DNA of 64,000 bases from Candidatus Limnocylindria bacterium (GTDB lineage: Bacteria > Chloroflexota > Limnocylindria > P2-11E): positions 9,172 through 73,171 of the forward strand of contig DASYXA010000065.1 in assembly GCA_035935465.1 (NCBI GenBank). Direction: 5' to 3'. The notes beneath the pieces are model-generated. The model was not told the DNA's origin. It ran no database searches and was given only the letters and a program-made list of their open reading frames with translations. Below are positions 2,291 through 10,727 of this stretch, piece by piece. How positions within the stretch are numbered: the stretch's first letter is position 1; each line of letters begins with the position of its first letter. Position numbers and translations under genes: made by a program.

Positions 2291-2698
2291 TCACGGCAGA
2301 ACGGTTCCTACGGCGAACGTGTAGCCGTCCGGGTCCTCGAGGATCACGTCGCGCCAGCCGTGCGGCCAATCGCGCGCGCCGAGCAGCACGATCGAGCCGC
2401 GCTCCTTCGCGCGCCGCTCGGCGGCGTCGGGGTCGATGCCGAGGATCCGGATCTCCGCGCCGAGCCCGCGCTTCCCGGCCTCGGCGAGACGCGGAGCCCA
2501 GGGCTGCTTGTCGTAGGTGTGGTCGGCGTGCAGCACGATCTGGGTGGAGTCGAGCTGCAGCGCGGCCATGTCCTCATCCGAGTAGTGGACGGTCATGCCC
2601 AGCACATCCCGGTAGAACGGGACGCTCTTCTGGACGTCGCGGACGATGAGGTTGAGCGACAGCCCGGTGAGGGTCTTGCCGTACGCGTCCGATGCCAT
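2291..2698 (-). CDS. VOC-family (glyoxalase/bleomycin-resistance fold) protein.
   Basis: MASDAYGKTLTGLSLNLIVRDVQKSVPFYRDVLGMTV...VILEDPDGYTFAV is a VOC paired beta-alpha-beta-beta-beta module. The internal ATG at 2698 was chosen because the tracked ORF start at 2839 would overlap carB. Confidence 0.7.
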   Translation of the reverse strand: MASDAYGKTLTGLSLNLIVRDVQKSVPFYRDVLGMTVHYSDEDMAALQLDSTQIVLHADHTYDKQPWAPRLAEAGKRGLGAEIRILGIDPDAAERRAKERGSIVLLGARDWPHGWRDVILEDPDGYTFAVGTVLP

Positions 2699-2724
2699 CC
2701 ACGGCGTGCCGGTGCGCCTGGTCG

Positions 2725-5700
2725 TCACGCCACGATCGGCGCGCTGCGGTATTCGCTCAACGGGGCGACGCTGTAGCGCTGCGCGCTCGCGCGGAGCGCG
2801 GTAACGACGGCGAGCGCGGTGTCGAGCGACGTGAGGCACGGCACGCGCGCCTCGACGGCGGCACGGCGGATGAGGAAGCCGTCGCGATCCACCGCCTTAC
2901 CGAGCGTCGGGGTGTTCACGACGGCGGCGCACTGCCCCGACCGGATGATCTGGAGGATCGTGGCGTCGCCGTCGCCGAGCTTCGGCACCTCCTGGACCTC
3001 GATGCCGAGCGAGCGGATGAGGGCGGCCGTCCCGCGGGTCGCGACGAGGTCGTACCCCAGCCAGTGGAACCCCTCGATGATCGACACGATCTCGGCCTTG
3101 TCCTTGTCGGCGACGGTGATGAGCACCTTGCCGCTCGGCATCGGCGCGAGGCCCGCCGCGACGAGCGACTTCCACAGCGCCGGCGCGAACGTGCGATCGA
3201 TGCCGATCACCTCGCCGGTGCTCTTCATCTCGGGACCGAGGTACGTGTCCACGTCGAGGAGCTTGGCCATCGAGAAGACCGGGGCCTTGAGCGCCACGAG
3301 ATCGCCCGACGGCCAGAGGCCATCCGCCCGCGCGTAGCCCTCGGCCGCGAGCGTGCTTCCGGCCCCGATCGCGACCGCGAGCTTCACCATCGGCACGCCG
3401 GTGACCTTCGTGAGGAACGGGACCGTGCGGCTCGCGCGCGGGTTCACCTCGAGGCACCACACGCGGCCCTCTTCGACTATGAACTGGATGTTCAGGAGGC
3501 CTCGGACGGGGAGCGACGACGCGATCTTCCGGGTGAGCTCGACGATCAGGTCGCGCTCCGCGGGGCTGAGGTTCGCCGCGGGGTACACCGCGAACGAATC
3601 GCCCGAGTGCACACCGGCCCGCTCGATGTGCTCCATGATCCCGGCGACCAGGGTGTCCTCGCCGTCGCTCACCGCGTCGACCTCGACCTCGCGCCCGCGC
3701 ACGTACTTGTCGACCAGCACGCGCCCGAAGCTCGCCTCGAGGGCCGAGCCGAAGTAGCGGTCGAGGTCGTCGGGCCCGTACGCGATCTCCATCCCGCGTC
3801 CGCCGAGCACGAACGACGGCCGCACGAGGACGGGGTACCCGATCCCGTCGGCGATCGCCCGCGCCTCGCTCAGCGAGTCCGCTGTTCCCCCGGGCGGCTG
3901 CGGGATCCCGAGCGCCGTGGCGAACTCGTGGAACCGCCGGCGATCCTCGGCCAAGCCGATCGCGTCGGCGCTCGTGCCGCTGATGTGGCCGCCGATGTCG
4001 GCGATCCGCTCCGCGAGGTTGAGCGCCGTCTGCCCGCCGAACTGCGCGAGCACCGCGACGTCGCCGCCCTCGTTCGCGAGGACGCTCGCGACCGATTCCT
4101 CGTCGAGCGGCTCGAAGTACAGGCGGGCCGACGCGTCGAAGTCGGTGCTCACCGTCTCGGGGTTGCTGTTGATCATGATCGCCTTGATGCCCCGCTCATC
4201 CAGCGCCATCGCGCTCTGGACGCAGCAGCAGTCGAACTCGATACCCTGCCCGATGCGGATCGGGCCGGATCCGAGGATCACGGTCTTCGGGCCCTCGAGC
4301 GCGGGCGCCTCGTTCTCCTGCTCGTACGTCGAGTAGAAGTACGGCGTCACGGCCTCGAACTCGGCGGCGCAGGTGTCGACCATCTTGTAGACCGGCACGA
4401 TCCCCCACTGGAGCCGGAGCCGGCGGACATCGGACATCTGGACGCCGCAGAGCGCCGCGATGTCGACGTCCGAGAAGCCCATGCGCTTCGCGCGCCGGAG
4501 CAGCGTCGGGTTCGGCGTCCGGCCCTCGAGCTCGTCGGCCGCGAATCGCACGACGTTACGGAGCTTGCGCAGGAACCAGCGGTCGATGCGCGTCGCGTCG
4601 TGGACCGCGTCGACGGTCGCCCCGCGCCGGAGCGCCGCGATGACCCGCCAGATCCGGTCATCCGTCGGCTCGCCCGCGAGGTAGCGCGCGACGAACGCGG
4701 CGGGATCCGTGCTGCCGGTCCATGCCGGCGCCTCGGCGAACAGGCTCTGGCCCTTGATCTCCAGCGAGCGGAGCGCCTTCAGCATCGCGGCCTCGAACGT
4801 CCGATCGATGGCCATGACCTCGCCCGTCGCCTTCATCTGCGTGCCGAGCCGGCGGTCCGCGGTGCGGAACTTGTCGAACGGCCAGCGTGGGATCTTCACC
4901 ACGACGTAGTCCAGGGTCGGCTCGAACGCCGCGGTCGTCATCTTTGTGACGGCGTTCGGGATCTCGAACAGCCGCTTGCCGATCGCGATCTTCGCCGCGA
5001 CGCGCGCGATCGGATAGCCCGTCGCCTTCGACGCGAGCGCCGATGAGCGCGACACCCGCGGATTGACCTCGATGACGTAGTACTGAACGCGCGCGTCGGG
5101 GTCATCGGACGGCGAGGCGTCGGGGTGCAACGCGAACTGGACGTTGCACCCGCCCTCGATCCCGAGCGCGCGGATGATCTTGAGCGCGGCGCTCCGGAGC
5201 TGCTGGTACTCCTTGTCCGAGATCGTCTGCGACGGCGCCACGACGATCGAGTCGCCGGTGTGCACGCCCATCGGATCGATGTTCTCCATGTTGCAGACGG
5301 TGATGCAGGTGTCGGCACCGTCGCGCATCACCTCCCACTCGAGCTCTTTCCAGCCCGTCAGGCTCCGTTCGACCAGGATCTGCCCGATCGGCGACGCGCT
5401 GATGCCGCGCTGCGCGCGCTCGCGGAGCTCGGTCGCGTCGGCCGCGAAGCCGCCGCCGGTCCCGCCGAGCGTGTACGCCGGCCGGATCACGACCGGGTAG
5501 CCGATACGCTCGGCGAACGCGACGGCCTCGTCGACGGTGTGCGCGGTCACGGATTCCGGCACCGGCTCGCCGATCTCGATCAACAGCTGCTTGAACGCCT
5601 CCCGGTCCTCGGCCTTGCGGATCGCCTCGAGCGGCGTGCCCAGGAGCTTCACCGCGTACCGCTCGAGGACGCCGGCGTCGGCCAGCGCGACCGCGAGGTT

Positions 5701-5979
5701 CAGGCCGGTCTGCCCGCCGAGGGTCGGCAGCAATCCGTCCGGGCGCTCGCGCTCGATGATCCGCTCGAGGACCTCGACGGTGAGCGGCTCGAGGTACGTG
5801 ACGTCGGCGACTCCGGGGTCGGTCATGATCGTCGCGGGATTCGAGTTCACGAGGATCGTCTCGATCCCCTCTTCGCGGAGCGCGCGGCAGGCCTGCGTGC
5901 CGGCGTAGTCGAACTCGGCGGCCTGGCCGATGAGGATCGGGCCCGAGCCGATGATCAGGACCTTCACAGGTCCAGCCAT
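2725..5979 (-). CDS. carB: Carbamoyl-phosphate synthase large subunit.
   Basis: 1084 aa from the ATG at 5979 ([30 protein letters not shown]...). Two ATP-grasp halves and an MGS-like C-terminus are present. The 72-aa R-rich extension at the tracked ORF start is rejected. Confidence 0.95.
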
Positions 5980-6791
5980 CCGCCACCGGCGATCGCGCAG
6001 CGCCCGCCGACGTGCACGCTCGTGATCCGCTCGCGGCCGCCCCCGACGCGCACGTAGAGGAGCGACGGGCGTCCCATCTCGTAGCCCTGCTCGGACACGA
6101 TGCGCGCGCCATCCGACAGACCGTGGCGCACGAGATACGCGCCGAGCGGTCCGTTCGCGGAGCCGGTCGCTGGATCCTCGGCGATGCCCTGCCACGGCGC
6201 GTACATCCGGCCGTGCACCGTGGACCCCGGCTCGACGGTCTCGGTGGTGAAGATGTAGGCGGCCTCGGCGAGCCCCCGCGGCGACGCGCGCTCGACCGCG
6301 TCGAGCGTCTTCACCGCCACGAACATGAACCGGTTGCCGCTCGAGCCGACCTCGATCGGCAGCCCTGTCTCCAGATCCGCGACCTCGAGCGACAGGGACC
6401 TCGCGACCGCCGCGCGGTCGGCGACCGGCTCGAATGTCGGCAGGGGCTGCTCCATCTCGCTGAAGCCGCCGCGCACGGTGACCCGCAGCGTCCCGACCTG
6501 CTCCTCCAGCCGGAGTGTCGCGTCCTGCGCGCCGGCCAGCACGTACGCCGTGCCGACCGTCGGGTGCCCGGCGAACGGCAGCTCGCGCGACGGCGTGAAG
6601 ATCCGCAGCCGGTGATCGCCACCCCGCTCGGCCGGGACGACGAACGTCGTTTCCGGGAGATTGAGCTCCTGCGCGGCGGTCTGCATGACGGTGCCGGCGA
6701 CGCCGCGACCGTCACGGAAGACCGCGAGCTGGTTGCCGCCGAACTTCCGGTCGGTGAAGACGTCGACCAGCGTGTATTCGTGGTGGGTCAT
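5964..6791 (-). CDS. PhzF-family (phenazine biosynthesis-like / DAP-epimerase fold) isomerase-like protein.
   Basis: [25 protein letters not shown]...[36 protein letters not shown], 275 aa. Its ATG at 6791 overlaps the carA stop (ATGA) and its stop lies 16 nt inside the carB start. The tracked 639-aa ORF is this gene plus a spurious antisense N-extension. Confidence 0.85.
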
Positions 6792-7924
6792 GCGCGCCGC
6801 GCGACGGCGTCGCGCACGTCGTCCATGAACCGGTCGAACACGGGCTCGTTGTCGCGCGGACCCGGCGCTCCCTCGGGGTGGTACTGATACGTGCGGATCG
6901 GCAGCGTGCGGTGGGCGAGACCCTCGACCGAGCCGTCGTTCAGGTTCCGCTTGCTCACGTAGAACTCCGAGTGCAGCGGCAGGGACGTCTCGTCGACCTG
7001 GAACTCGTGGTTCTGGCTCGTGATCACGACCTGCCCGGTGACCGTGTCCTGCACCGGGTGATTGCTCCCGTGGTGGCCGAACGGGAGCCGCGACGTCGAG
7101 GCCCCGATGGCCCGCGCGAGCAGCTGATGGCCGAGACAGATGCCGAGGATCGGCACCGGCCGCCCGGCGCCGCGGCTCTCGGCCATGTCGAGGAGGATCT
7201 TCACGTTCGCGGCGACCGATCCGATCGCGGCCGGGTCGCCCGGGCCGTTCGTGATCACGATGCCGTCGGGCGACCAGGACAACACCGAGCGCAGGCTCGA
7301 CTCCACCGGGAACACGCGCACCGCCGCGCCGCGTTGCACGAGGCTGCGGATCTGGTTCTCCTTCACACCGGTGTCGATCAACGCGATCTTCGGCCCGGCG
7401 CCGACGGTGCGCTCGACGGAAACGCTCGCCTCGGCGACCAGCGGCCGCTGCGCGAGCGGCGTCGTGGCGCGGGCCTTCGCGACCGCCTCGGTCCCGATGT
7501 CGGGATCGAGCGCGCGGTGCGGCGGGACCTGGATGAGCGCGCCGCGCAGCGTGCCGGACGACCGGAGCCGGCGGGTGAGCGCGCGCGTATCGACGCCCGC
7601 GATCCCGGGGACGCCGTTCGCGCGCAGGTACGAGTCGAGGTCGTCGGTCCCCTCGCGGCACGTCGCGTTCAGCTCGCGCACGACGAGCGCCTCGACCCAC
7701 GGCTTGCGCGATTCGGCGGCGCGATCGAACACGCCGTAGCTCCCGATGAGCGGGAAGGTCATCACGACGATCTGTCCGTTGTACGACGCATCGGAGGCGA
7801 CCTCCTGATAGCCGGTCATCGCCGTGTTGAACACGACCTCGCCCGACGCGTTCGACGAATCGCCGAACGCCTCGCCCCACCACACCGAACCATCCTCGAG
7901 CCCGAGGGCGGCCGCCCTGCTCAT
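6788..7924 (-). CDS. carA: Carbamoyl-phosphate synthase small (glutaminase) subunit.
   Basis: MSRAAALGLEDGSVWWGEAFG... with class-I GATase motifs ICLGHQLLA and HPE. Start assigned to the ATG at 7924; the tracked start at 8020 would read through the AT-rich leader. Confidence 0.9.
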   Translation of the reverse strand: MSRAAALGLEDGSVWWGEAFGDSSNASGEVVFNTAMTGYQEVASDASYNGQIVVMTFPLIGSYGVFDRAAESRKPWVEALVVRELNATCREGTDDLDSYLRANGVPGIAGVDTRALTRRLRSSGTLRGALIQVPPHRALDPDIGTEAVAKARATTPLAQRPLVAEASVSVERTVGAGPKIALIDTGVKENQIRSLVQRGAAVRVFPVESSLRSVLSWSPDGIVITNGPGDPAAIGSVAANVKILLDMAESRGAGRPVPILGICLGHQLLARAIGASTSRLPFGHHGSNHPVQDTVTGQVVITSQNHEFQVDETSLPLHSEFYVSKRNLNDGSVEGLAHRTLPIRTYQYHPEGAPGPRDNEPVFDRFMDDVRDAVARRA

Positions 7925-7927
7925 CGG

Positions 7928-7962
7928 TGCATAACTATACATGTCCGATGCATAAAGATGCA
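7928..7962. promoter_or_regulatory. AT-rich island with two TGCATA-containing dyads 21 bp apart, a candidate ArgR operator (ARG-box-like) abutting the carA start.
   Basis: TGCATAACTATACATG at 7928 and TGCATAAAGATGCA at 7949–7962 compare with the ARG box TNTGAATWWWWATTCANW. The island is conspicuous in ~72% GC DNA. Confidence 0.4.
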
Positions 7963-8020
7963 ATTGGCGCTCGAGGAGCAGCGCCTCGCGCTCAGCGGCC
8001 GCGATCCGCCGGCGACCCAC

Positions 8021-9250
8021 CTAGGCGAGCGCCCGCGTCGATCCGTCGAGCCGCAGCTCGCCGTCCACCGCGGCGGCGACGACCTGTCCGACGAGGCCGC
8101 GTCCGAGCAGCGGCGTGTTCTTGCCGAGCGACCGGAGCGAGGCCGCAGCGGGAGTCCACGCAGCGCGCGGATCGATGACCACGAGGTCGTTCGGCGGGAG
8201 CGCGATGCCGAGCACGCGGGCCGGACCGACCGTGAGCGCCTCGACCACTCGGTCCCAGGTCCCCCACCCCGCCGCGACACCGGCGAGCAGCAGCGGTACC
8301 GCGGTCTCGAAGACCGAGATCCCGAACGCGGCGTCTTGGTACTCGACGTCCTTCCGCGTGGACGCGTGCGGCGCGTGGTCGGTCGCGATCGCGTCGATGG
8401 TCCCGTCCATCAGGCCCGCCCAGCAGGCGCGCACGTCGGCGGCCGTGCGGAGCGGCGGATTCACTTTCGTCGACGTGTCGAACGGGAGGACCGGGGGGCG
8501 AGGCCCCCCGGTGGCCGTGTCTTCCCAGGCGAACGCGCGCGAGCCGGCGACCCACTCGTCGGTGAGCGCCAGGTGATGCGGCGTGACCTCGCAGGTGATC
8601 GCGAGTCCACCGGCCTTCGCGCGCCGCACGAGCTCGACGCTGCCGGCGGTGGAGACGTGTGCGAGGTGCAGCCGGCCGCCGGTGAGCTTCGCGAGCGAGA
8701 GGTCGCGGGCGATCGCGCTCTCCTCGGCCGCGGCCGGGATCCCCGGCAGGCCGAGCCGCGCGGACACGACCCCCTCGTGCATCACGCCACCGGCCGAGAG
8801 TGCCTGGTCCTGCGAGTGCTCGAAGATCGGGCGCCCCGCCGCCCGCGCGTACTCGAGCGCGTTGCGGAAGAGCTGCGCGTCGCCGACCGGCGATCCATCG
8901 TCCGAGAACGCGACCGCGCCGGCGGCCGCGAGCTCGACGAGGTCGGCCAGCTCGGCGCCCTTGCGCCCGCGGGTGATCGTCGCGATCGGGAGCACGCGCG
9001 CGGCGGTCGCCGCCTCGCCGCGCGCGATGACCTCGGCGATCAGGCCGGGCGAGTCGATGGCCGGCTCGGTGTTCGGCATGGCGCAGATCGTGGTGAACCC
9101 GCCGGCGAGCGCGGCGCGGGCCCCGGTGGCGATGGTCTCCGACTCCTCGAAGCCCGGCTCGCGGAGGTGCGCGTGCAGGTCGATGAAGCCCGGTGCCGTG
9201 ATGAGTCCGCGCTGCTCGGCATCACGCTTGAGATCCGCCGGCACGCTCAC
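8021..9250 (-). CDS. pyrC: Dihydroorotase.
   Basis: Hand translation from the GTG at 9250 gives [50 protein letters not shown]... The GTGA overlap with the pyrB stop supports this start. The N-terminus is ~30 aa shorter than typical. The first 410 aa of the tracked 819-aa ORF are antisense to pyrB and rejected. Confidence 0.85.
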   Translation of the reverse strand: MSVPADLKRDAEQRGLITAPGFIDLHAHLREPGFEESETIATGARAALAGGFTTICAMPNTEPAIDSPGLIAEVIARGEAATAARVLPIATITRGRKGAELADLVELAAAGAVAFSDDGSPVGDAQLFRNALEYARAAGRPIFEHSQDQALSAGGVMHEGVVSARLGLPGIPAAAEESAIARDLSLAKLTGGRLHLAHVSTAGSVELVRRAKAGGLAITCEVTPHHLALTDEWVAGSRAFAWEDTATGGPRPPVLPFDTSTKVNPPLRTAADVRACWAGLMDGTIDAIATDHAPHASTRKDVEYQDAAFGISVFETAVPLLLAGVAAGWGTWDRVVEALTVGPARVLGIALPPNDLVVIDPRAAWTPAAASLRSLGKNTPLLGRGLVGQVVAAAVDGELRLDGSTRALA

Positions 9251-10191
9251 GCCGTGTGCTCCGGCGTGCCGGCGAGGAGATACAGGAGGGCCATCCGCAC
9301 CGCGACGCCGTTGGTCACCTGCGTCTCGATGAGCGATCGCGCGCCATGCGCGACGGACGCGGCGATCTCGACGCCCTCGTTCATCGGCCCGGGGTGGAGC
9401 ACCGGCGCATCCGGCCGCATGCGCTTCGCCCGCTCCTCCGAGAGACCCCACGTGCGCGCGTACTCGCGCAGCGAGGGCAGCAGGCCGGCGTGCTGCCGCT
9501 CCTTCTGGAGGCGCAGCGCGATGACCGCGTCCGCGCCGTCGAGCGCGCGGTCGAGGTCCGGCTCGAACACCGTTCCCCGCGGCGTCATCCCGCAGCGCCA
9601 CGCGGACGGCACGAGCGTCGGCGGTCCGGAGAGCGTGACCGTCGCGCCGAGCGGCACCAGCGCGTCGATGTCCGACCGCGCGACCCGCGAGTGGGTGATG
9701 TCCCCGACGATCACGATCCGCTTGCCGGCGAGGTCGCCGAGGGCGGCGCGCAGGGTGTAGGCGTCGAGGAGCCCTTGGGTCGGATGGGCGTGCCATCCGT
9801 CGCCGGCGTTGATCACCGCCGCGTCCGTGCGCTCCGCGACGAAGTACGGGGCACCCGATGCGGCGTGGCGCATGACGATCACGTCTCCGCCCAGCGCCGT
9901 GAGCGTGCGCACCGTGTCGAGGAGGGTCTCGCCCTTCTCGACCGACGAGCCGCTCGCGGTGACGTTCGTGACGTCCGCGGAGAGCGCCTTCGCGGCGAGC
10001 TCGAACGACACCCGCGTGCGGGTCGACGCTTCGGCGAAGAAGAGGATGACGGTCCGGCCGCGGAGCGCCGGGGTGCGGCGGATCGGCCGGCCGAGCACCT
10101 CGACCATCGCGCTCGTCGTGTCGAGCACGTGCTCGATCTCGCCGCGTGACCAATCGTCCGTCGCGAGCACGTGGCGGCGCTGCCAGCTCAT
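9247..10191 (-). CDS. pyrB: Aspartate carbamoyltransferase catalytic subunit.
   Basis: [13 protein letters not shown] and HPGP motifs, 314 aa. The start at 10191 overlaps the pyrR stop. Confidence 0.92.
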
Positions 10192-10727
10192 GCCGCCACC
10201 CCGGCGTGGACGAGCTCGACCTCGTCCGTGCCGCCGGTCTCGACGAGCTGGACGCGCACGTCGTCGGTGAGCGCGGTCGGCACGTTCTTGCCCACGAAAT
10301 CGGCGCGGATCGGCAGCTCGCGGTGGCCACGGTCGACCAGGACCGCCAGCCGGATGGCCCGCGGCCTGCCGTAGTCGACGAGCGCGTCCATCGCGGCGCG
10401 GATCGTGCGGCCGGTGAACAGGACGTCGTCCACCAGGACGACGATCTTGTCGTCGACCGAGAAGGGGATGACCGATTCACGGACCACCGGCGCGTGACCG
10501 ATGCGGGTCAGGTCGTCGCGGTACAGCGTGATGTCGAGCGACCCGAGGGGAAGGTCGAGGCCCTCGTTGCGGCGGATCGCGTCGTGGAGCCGCGTGGCGA
10601 TCAGATCGCCGCGCGCGCGGATCCCCACGAGCGTGAGCGCGGGAAGGTCGCGATCGCGTTCGACGATCTCGTGCGCGATGCGCGCGATGGCCCGTCGGAC
10701 GTCGTCGGGCGCGAGGATGATCGGCAG
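10188..10727 (-). CDS. pyrR: Bifunctional pyrimidine operon regulator / uracil phosphoribosyltransferase PyrR. Start is non-canonical (candidate CTG at 10727).
   Basis: Hand translation upstream of the tracked GTG gives [64 protein letters not shown], a full PyrR N-terminus. No ATG, GTG or TTG lies between the in-frame TAA and this conserved region. Confidence 0.85.

Follow-up and report, generated by a model that had tools for sequence, protein, structure and literature searches.

A PhzF/YddE-family gene in a variable slot between carA and carB of Candidatus Limnocylindria

What is a predicted isomerase gene doing inside the operon for carbamoyl-phosphate synthetase (CPSase)? The genes for the two subunits, carA and carB, are usually treated as an invariant core unit. 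In a 64,000-nucleotide stretch of contig DASYXA010000065.1 from a Candidatus Limnocylindria bacterium (the whole stretch is called the window below), an open reading frame (ORF) of the PhzF/YddE family lies between them on the minus strand. The ORF (5964..6791, 275 aa) is preceded by carA for the small, glutaminase subunit (6788..7924, 378 aa) and followed by carB for the large subunit (2725..5967), both on the same strand. An earlier interpretation made without database searches, the sequence-only reading, proposed that the protein is produced stoichiometrically with the CPSase subunits and has an accessory activity linked to carbamoyl-phosphate or glutamine-derived chemistry. We think it fairly probable that the gene is instead a functional PhzF/YddE-family isomerase cassette, co-expressed with CPSase yet dispensable, exchangeable between lineages and no component of the enzyme.

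The predicted protein matches PF02567 (E=1.8e-59; 202 bits, cut-off 27; residues 9-267 aligned to 1-277 of the 281 profile positions) and TIGR00654 (206.5 bits, cut-off 76.2), its best profile matches being to the PhzF family. CarA matches TIGR01368 (389 bits), PF00988 and PF00117, and CarB matches NF003671 (1448 bits), so the placement of a PhzF/YddE-family ORF between carA and carB is borne out. The YddE equivalog model NF007625 was not passed (156.8 bits, cut-off 386). Judged by these profiles, the protein is a PhzF/YddE member at the family level only. It is the sole PhzF hit in the window, and more than 14,000 clusters at 50% identity match it. The comparisons with relatives given below indicate that the ORF is a genuine gene under selection.

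A survey of carA-carB synteny, as the sequence-only reading had proposed, gave a divided picture. JGI metagenomes were scanned for carA with the clade-specific peptides WWGEAFG and QNHEFQV as query, and the best 80 loci among the matches listed were taken. Their CarA proteins are 70-93% identical to that of the window, and about 5 kb is visible on each side. The gene follows carA directly in 51 of the 76 informative loci, and carB is seen behind it in 42 of these. In the other 25 carA and carB are directly adjacent, with no phzF within about 5 kb; the remaining four of the 80 loci were uninformative. Two of the 51 hold damaged copies. In one (L157) all that is left of phzF is 47 N-terminal codons within a spacer of 145 nt, and in another (L166) phzF has a deletion of about 39 codons and a frameshift. 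In a tree of CarA, the loci without phzF fall into six or more separate patches amid phzF-bearing ones. Because these patches are scattered, phzF is dispensable. Repeated loss would account for this, or replacement by empty alleles through exchange. The long carA-carB spacers of the phzF-less loci held no detectable PhzF remnant.

The host is not a high-GC Gram-positive, as had been supposed. A protein 100% identical to the one in the window (P0001) comes from a metagenome-assembled genome (MAG) that NCBI names Candidatus Limnocylindria, of the phylum Chloroflexota. PhzF homologues at least 75% identical are numerous in soil metagenomes. More distant embedded homologues also follow carA (P0121, 60% identity; P0122, 58%; P0128, 52-54%; P0290), while three proteins of about 50-54% identity (P0125, P0141, P0293) are not encoded next to it. 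The association did not recur beyond this group. A scan of GTDB genomes with the PhzF alignment served as a negative control and gave 80 loci among the matches listed, all from other taxa, with 36-50% identity and none from the embedded clade. None of the 80 has a car or pyr gene within 5 kb. They also have no conserved partner gene in common, many of the neighboring ORFs being spurious high-GC frames.

Where phzF is present, it comes in deeply divergent types. Full-length embedded PhzF proteins fall into types F0 to F6, with 47-61% identity across types, and one further locus (L171) adds an eighth, F7. The protein of the window is of type F1. These types cut across CarA clades. F1, F2 and F3 all occur in the clade of the window (CarA at least 89% identical); F1 is also found in CarA clade A2 and F2 in clade A0. 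Different types and the empty slot are seen side by side within the contig sets Ga0207646, Ga0207684 and WNGI01. Different PhzF types, with a median identity of 54%, sit with CarA proteins that are 83-94% identical. For pairs of the same type the median identities of CarA and PhzF are 0.93 and 0.83 within a CarA clade and 0.77 and 0.70 between clades. For pairs of different type they are 0.85 and 0.54 within a clade and 0.76 and 0.54 between clades. Within a type, PhzF divergence roughly tracks the host, and between types it is large regardless of host.

The change of type is confined to the gene itself. About 10 kb was compared at the DNA level, covering an M23 peptidase gene, pyrR, pyrB, pyrC, carA, carB and a VOC-family gene. 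Sliding identity between the window and loci L094 and L095 is 73-93% over this region and 64-68% inside phzF only; with L094 alone the values are 78-93% and 64-66%. Identity to a third locus, L092, is uniform at 76-91%. Pairs within type F0 with unsaturated synonymous divergence (dS 0.16-0.40) gave a dN/dS ratio (omega) of 0.087 for phzF versus 0.084 for carA, with nonsynonymous divergence (dN) of 0.023 versus 0.019. Because omega within a type equals that of carA, the types are not products of relaxed constraint. They may predate the divergence of the CarA clades surveyed, or may have been imported, and would then have been sorted or exchanged among lineages. In a bootstrapped neighbor-joining tree the soil types F0 to F5 group together (80%), as do F6 and F7 (75%). 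The neighbor-joining neighbor of type F6 is P0141, which has no adjoining carA.

Three other accounts of the locus were set aside. A tandem-paralogue model with differential loss found no second copy or remnant in any spacer (blastx, E<=0.05). A mobile element is not indicated by the window, where both junctions are 4-nt overlaps with no non-coding flank and there is no compositional shift. As for a defense system, the PhzF, VOC and PemK ORFs had no PADLOC-DB match at E<=0.01.

Both junctions of phzF with the CPSase genes are of a type common in this operon. Plus-strand TCAT at 6788-6791 is ATGA on the minus strand, where the phzF ATG (6791-6789) overlaps the carA TGA (6790-6788), just as the sequence-only reading described. 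The phzF stop is TGA 5966-5964, and a 16-nt overlap with carB had been claimed on that side. This holds if the in-frame ATG at 5979-5977 is the carB start; homologues favor another codon. CarB homologues begin at xKVL(I/L)IGSGP, and the matching codon in the window is GTG 5967-5965. At that start the overlap is 4 nt (NTGA) in 31 of 41 related loci, and GTGA in the window. The upstream codon is ATG in just 6 of 32 loci and missing in 8 of the 32, and the ATG at 5979 arises incidentally from the conserved PhzF codons for Gly-Trp (GGA TGG). Given the homologue starts and the poor conservation of the upstream ATG, the annotation with 4-nt overlaps at either end of phzF has the better support. Of 49 loci, 46 have 4 nt of overlap between carA and phzF. 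Overlaps of 4 nt are also found at pyrR/pyrB, pyrB/pyrC and carB/VOC, the sole exception being a 96-nt gap between pyrC and carA. They are the default of this operon, and the phzF junctions are therefore not special. In 10 of the 41 related loci, spacers of 88-514 nt precede carB. Stoichiometric production with CPSase thus over-reads the overlaps. Co-expression stands as very likely, since the gene would be read from the carA-carB transcription unit with coupling-type overlaps.

The 3' end of phzF has a further feature. At 5967-5990 the codons for the C-terminal Gly-Gly-Gly-Trp of PhzF (GGN GGN GGN TGG) are rich in purines and lie 10-20 nt before the carB start, where they could double as a putative ribosome-binding site for carB. 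The same codons give a spurious in-frame ATG or GTG at -12 of carB. Junctions without the 4-nt overlap carry GC-rich spacers of 70-510 nt that are often highly structured; the window has none. One such spacer (L001:6829-7108) has 74-nt arms that are 77% complementary. For L149/L155 (between carA and phzF) and L119/L130 (between carA and carB), the spacers match one another in inverted orientation and look like miniature inverted-repeat transposable elements (MITE) or repetitive extragenic palindromes (REP). Further spacers lie between phzF and carB in L144 and L147.

Upstream of carA, whose start MSRAAALGLEDG lines up with its homologues, is an AT-rich 40-nt element on the minus strand, CAATTGCATCTTTATGCATC followed by GGACATGTATAGTTATGCAC (7927-7966). 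It lies in the pyrC-carA gap just before the carA ATG at 7924, in a genome of about 70% GC. The element consists of two adjoining 20-nt boxes, the first with the core TGCAT-N4-ATGCA and the second degenerate, TGTAT-N4-ATGCA. The core of box 1 is the core of the ArgR-bound ARG boxes of Streptomyces coelicolor argH and argG (PMC5839063 Table 1). The element also overlaps TTGCAT-18 nt-TATAGT, a possible -35/-10 pair that ends 9 nt before the carA ATG. A generic scan for sigma-70 promoters gave no hit at the element. The two long contigs L001 and L002 both keep it, and 74 of 75 related loci have a motif resembling the core. These features suggest a putative ArgR-type operator combined with an internal promoter, giving arginine-responsive expression of carA-phzF-carB. 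The carA transcript may be leaderless and ArgR-controlled.

Among the alternatives, the one that survives best is that PhzF is a dedicated accessory of CPSase, or of pyrimidine or arginine synthesis, made with CarA and CarB for that purpose. We hold this to be unlikely. Its substrates would be glutamine-, carbamoyl-phosphate- or ureido-derived, and it might for example epimerize or repair N-carbamoyl-aspartate, dihydroorotate or a side-product. Such a role fits the invariant slot, the coupling overlaps, the control region shared with CPSase and purifying selection that matches that on carA. The gene may have been captured repeatedly, since the tree does not resolve the embedded clades as one monophyletic group. 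Ureido amino acids are also within the range of DapF-fold enzymes, an O-ureidoserine racemase (7vdy) being among the distant fold matches of the protein. An obligate accessory or third subunit of CPSase would be expected to occur and evolve with it. Instead a third of the informative loci (25 of 76) have no phzF, decay intermediates exist, and the drop in identity is confined to phzF. The distribution and the lack of co-variation with carA and carB therefore argue against an obligate CPSase partner. Independent associations in other taxa are also missing (0 of 80), 4-nt overlaps are generic here, and the operon also houses a VOC gene and a PemK toxin gene, hence unrelated passengers. The dedicated CPSase-linked activity of the sequence-only reading is thus not favored, while an optional CPSase-linked role is still compatible with the data.

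Several points weigh against an exchangeable cassette with no part in CPSase function. In every embedded occurrence (more than 55 loci) phzF is exactly between carA and carB. A role linked to CPSase, though not needed by every lineage, could explain both this invariant slot and the strong purifying selection. Lineages with an empty slot may carry phzF elsewhere, as about 5 kb per side is visible, and the carA-centered loci are a sample only. In the neighbor-joining tree the union of F0-F5 with F6 and F7 is not recovered (4%) and the backbone is unresolved. One insertion and two captures would both fit that tree, and independent capture would argue for functional coupling. The between-type dS values are saturated (about 0.5-0.8) and were not used, so the description of the types as ancient alleles rests on protein distances and within-type rates. 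Finally, the pocket mapping described below is less certain in the region 150-205, where the alignment has indels.

An isomerase cassette of the PhzF kind should retain the fold and the catalytic center of the family, and this is what the predicted structure indicates. The closest solved structures by sequence are Pseudomonas fluorescens PhzF (E=1e-47), Escherichia coli YddE (1e-31) and then PA4716. An AlphaFold2 model had a predicted local distance difference test score of 82 and a predicted template modeling (TM) score of 0.84. With this model Foldseek placed PhzF, YddE and PA4716 on top (TM 0.84-0.86; PhzF 1xub/5iwe 0.85). More distant matches were DapF and proline racemase (TM about 0.65), a hydroxyproline epimerase and the O-ureidoserine racemase. 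The catalytic trio E47, H76 and D206 aligns to E45, H74 and D208 of PhzF and is invariant in 48 embedded homologues and in a 12-sequence alignment. The sequence-only reading was right that the catalytic-region motifs are intact, and the model agrees on the fold. The 48 homologues have 61 invariant columns in total, with all catalytic residues among them.

For pocket mapping we used the 17 active-site residues listed for PhzF (PMC4586147). The window protein is identical to P. fluorescens PhzF at 13 of these ligand residues, has one conservative change (V205I) and differs at S44P, H155F and Y203Q, the alignment being uncertain near indels. Every embedded type keeps N20, E47, A74, G75, H76, D206 and G210 (PhzF N18, E45, A72, G73, H74, D208 and G212). 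M196, A208 and T209 (PhzF M198, A210 and T211) are near-invariant with one exception apiece, and the position of PhzF S213 is mostly Ser. The equivalent of PhzF H155 is Phe in nearly all embedded proteins, and that of S44 is Pro in the type of the window. Two positions that contact the ligand ring in PhzF vary by type: the equivalent of PhzF A183 (A177 in the window) is N/S, A, G or D, and that of Y203 (Q201 in the window) is L, Q, V or A. What appears to be kept is thus the proton-shuttle machinery with the grip on carboxylate and ammonium, and what varies is the part of the pocket facing the rest of the ligand. The type-specific positions suggest that the types differ in substrate specificity.

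The same residues bear on a second alternative, which we rate below the accessory role and regard as doubtful. The protein could be a cofactor-independent amino-acid racemase or epimerase with Glu47 and Asp206 as its two bases. It might act on the glutamate or glutamine that CarA releases or uses, for instance, or on a different amino acid. Plant PhzF-family proteins are reportedly such racemases. Glu47 and Asp206 are both invariant and presumably take the positions of the two catalytic Cys residues of DapF. The fold relatives include racemases and epimerases, and a conserved amino-acid-binding scaffold with a side-chain pocket that varies by type would suit such an activity. Against it, Asp208 of PhzF itself is no catalytic base (PMC5524880, PMC4586147).

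A third possibility, which we consider improbable and place lower again, is that the carA-carB slot is a long-term balanced polymorphism. Ancient PhzF specificity types and a null allele, some types perhaps captured more than once, would be kept by selection in co-occurring soil populations. The enzyme would then need to convert a metabolite that is linked to CPSase, arginine or pyrimidine or derived from glutamine and whose identity matters between strains, such as a signal, a cross-fed compound or an antimetabolite. If true, this would open a first way into the physiology of the large, uncharacterized PhzF/YddE family, and diversifying selection would be at work within an operon of core biosynthesis.

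It is very unlikely that the gene encodes a true trans-2,3-dihydro-3-hydroxyanthranilate (DHHA) isomerase feeding phenazine or another DHHA-derived product. The best solved relative is a bona fide PhzF (E=1e-47, as against 1e-31 for YddE), the Glu/His/Asp residues and those binding the carboxylate and ammonium groups are kept, and the JGI annotation carries that name. However, neither the 12.8-kb loci L001 and L002 nor the surroundings of phzF in the window have phzA/B, phzC, phzD, phzE or phzG, and the window has one PhzF hit. Ligand contacts have changed (S44 to Pro, H155 to Phe, Y203 to Gln). The NCBIfam match reaches the family level only, and the JGI name is an automated family-level label. 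That the ORF is non-functional, either a chance frame in 72%-GC DNA, where long spurious ORFs are frequent, or a decaying passenger of the sort seen as remnants and pseudogenes in some relatives, is effectively refuted by the Pfam match, the invariant columns, the within-type dN/dS and the confident PhzF-like model.

Returning to the dispensable cassette, its workings can be outlined. From the conserved residues, Glu47 would abstract a proton and re-donate it, bringing about an isomerization or epimerization as in PhzF. The ligand would be a small amino-acid-like molecule, its carboxylate held by the backbone amides of Gly75/His76 and Gly210/Ser211 and its ammonium group by Glu47 and Asp206. 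The gene would be co-transcribed with CPSase from a start that is probably at the conserved ARG-box-like promoter and operator upstream of carA, and translationally coupled through its NTGA overlaps. Its fixed slot is in the pyrR-pyrB-pyrC-carA-[phzF]-carB-VOC-...-pyrK-pyrD cluster of Candidatus Limnocylindria. About two-thirds of related lineages have it, and the others would have lost it repeatedly, with the remnant and the pseudogene as intermediates. The spread of types independently of the carA/carB background may reflect ancient polymorphism, or homologous recombination through highly conserved flanks; the conserved 3' end of carA and 5' end of carB would be the substrates for such exchange. 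The role is most likely a peripheral metabolite conversion, with expression merely tied to arginine and pyrimidine demand.

How does this arrangement compare with known ones? Like P. fluorescens PhzF (PDB 1t6k, 1u1w, 5iwe), the window protein has the Pfam family, the fold (36% identity in the structural alignment, TM 0.85), the catalytic Glu and His/Asp, and the AGHP and EDxATGS motifs that bind a carboxylate through backbone amides. Unlike it, the gene has no phenazine operon around it and sits inside a primary-metabolism operon, and S44P, H155F and Y203Q set the protein apart. At 275 aa it also lacks several loops of family members of about 300 aa. YddE of E. coli, PA4716 and YHI9 are likewise PhzF-family proteins outside phenazine clusters with the same fold (TM 0.81-0.86), but they are more distant in sequence (E=1e-31 or weaker) and have no link to carAB. 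The pattern of variation is like that of the capsule and O-antigen loci of pneumococci and enterobacteria, which are replacement-type variable loci between conserved genes. In both, deeply divergent alleles and presence/absence share one slot, with sharp drops in identity at conserved flanks capable of exchange. Here, however, a single cytoplasmic enzyme gene in an essential biosynthetic operon varies, and not a surface gene cluster.

Nor is an ORF between carA and carB unique to this group, as had been implied. Pseudomonas aeruginosa and Xanthomonas citri each have an extra, co-transcribed ORF in this position, and that of X. citri overlaps the end of carA (PMC4619228). The two ORFs are reported to be unrelated to each other. 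Compared by description, they differ from the gene studied here in that they are described neither as PhzF-family nor as having presence/absence variation or allelic types (PMC4619228). A literature search gave no PhzF-CPSase link, no mention of PhzF in a Limnocylindria genomics paper and nothing useful on PhzF functions outside phenazine synthesis. What is new is the genomic context and the population pattern; the protein family is already known.

To our knowledge, almost no member of the widespread PhzF/YddE family has an assigned substrate outside phenazine synthesis. A member wired into CPSase expression in an abundant uncultured class of soil and freshwater bacteria offers concrete conditions and candidate substrates. 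The carAB pair here hosts an optional gene with several apparently ancient alleles and sharp recombination-like boundaries, a pattern normally seen at surface and defense loci. Should the types be maintained by selection, the locus would be an unusual case of metabolic diversification at strain level. If they are not, it is a clean natural example of conserved flanks easing the swap and loss of an insert. For annotation, the gene warns against the label "DHHA isomerase" in such cases and against taking function from operon position alone.

The remaining genes of the operon are all on the minus strand. The order in the window is pyrR, pyrB, pyrC, the 96-nt gap, carA, phzF, carB, the VOC gene, a small ORF, the PemK toxin gene, pyrK and pyrD. 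For pyrR, a pyrimidine operon regulator of the phosphoribosyltransferase type (10188..10628, start approximate), and pyrB, for aspartate carbamoyltransferase (9247..10191), the assignments come from the ORF list with PF00156 and OTCace_N/OTCace matches, respectively, on orthologues; PyrB is 92% identical to that of L002. The dihydroorotase gene pyrC (8021..9250) was identified by its translation and by Pfam Amidohydro_1/DHOase matches on the L001 and L002 orthologues, and its GTG start overlaps the pyrB stop. The same order around the carA-phzF slot is seen in L001, L002, L003, L084/L085, L088, L089 and L171. The operons of L001 (PhzF 75% identical) and L002 (82%) match that of the window. The GC content of phzF (0.71-0.73, versus 0.69-0.74 in its neighbors) shows no anomaly.

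The VOC/glyoxalase-family gene (2291..2728, 145 aa; PF00903, E=5.5e-9, and translation) is the second non-pyr member of the operon, and its GTG start overlaps the carB stop (GTGA). Both L001 and L002 have it behind carB, as do at least 22 of the 80 survey loci, at widely varying identity (54-88%); the L088 lineage lacks it. The PemK/MazF-type toxin gene (1638-2048; PF02452, E=5.6e-17) lies between the VOC gene and pyrK, and a small ORF just upstream of it (about 2050-2290) may encode its antitoxin. It is present in L002 and not in L001, which makes it another optional passenger of the pyr operon.

Two near-identical PhzF proteins (P0010 and P0020), 88% identical to that of the window, are labeled Candidatus Saccharimonadales bacterium by NCBI. 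Their high identity to the Limnocylindria-labeled protein suggests mis-binned or mis-classified soil MAGs. Among the 80 distant PhzF loci are small lineage-specific clusters of neighbors, namely a response regulator (5 loci) and a small Cys-rich protein (3 loci). Others, two of each, we take from reading their sequences to be TrpE-like, RidA-like and aminotransferase-like. The closest non-embedded homologues listed (L004, L006 and L009; Chloroflexota, Anaerolineae; 48-50% identity) have in common a downstream Cys-rich gene of about 130 codons (CPRC...CPxC). In two cyanobacterial loci (L069 and L071) the homologue is directly downstream of the gene named by eye as TrpE-like (anthranilate synthase component I), and in two Terriglobia/Bryobacterales loci of the Acidobacteriota (L063 and L080) it is downstream of the one named in the same way as RidA/YjgF-like. 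Both neighbors may hint at function in other branches of the family.

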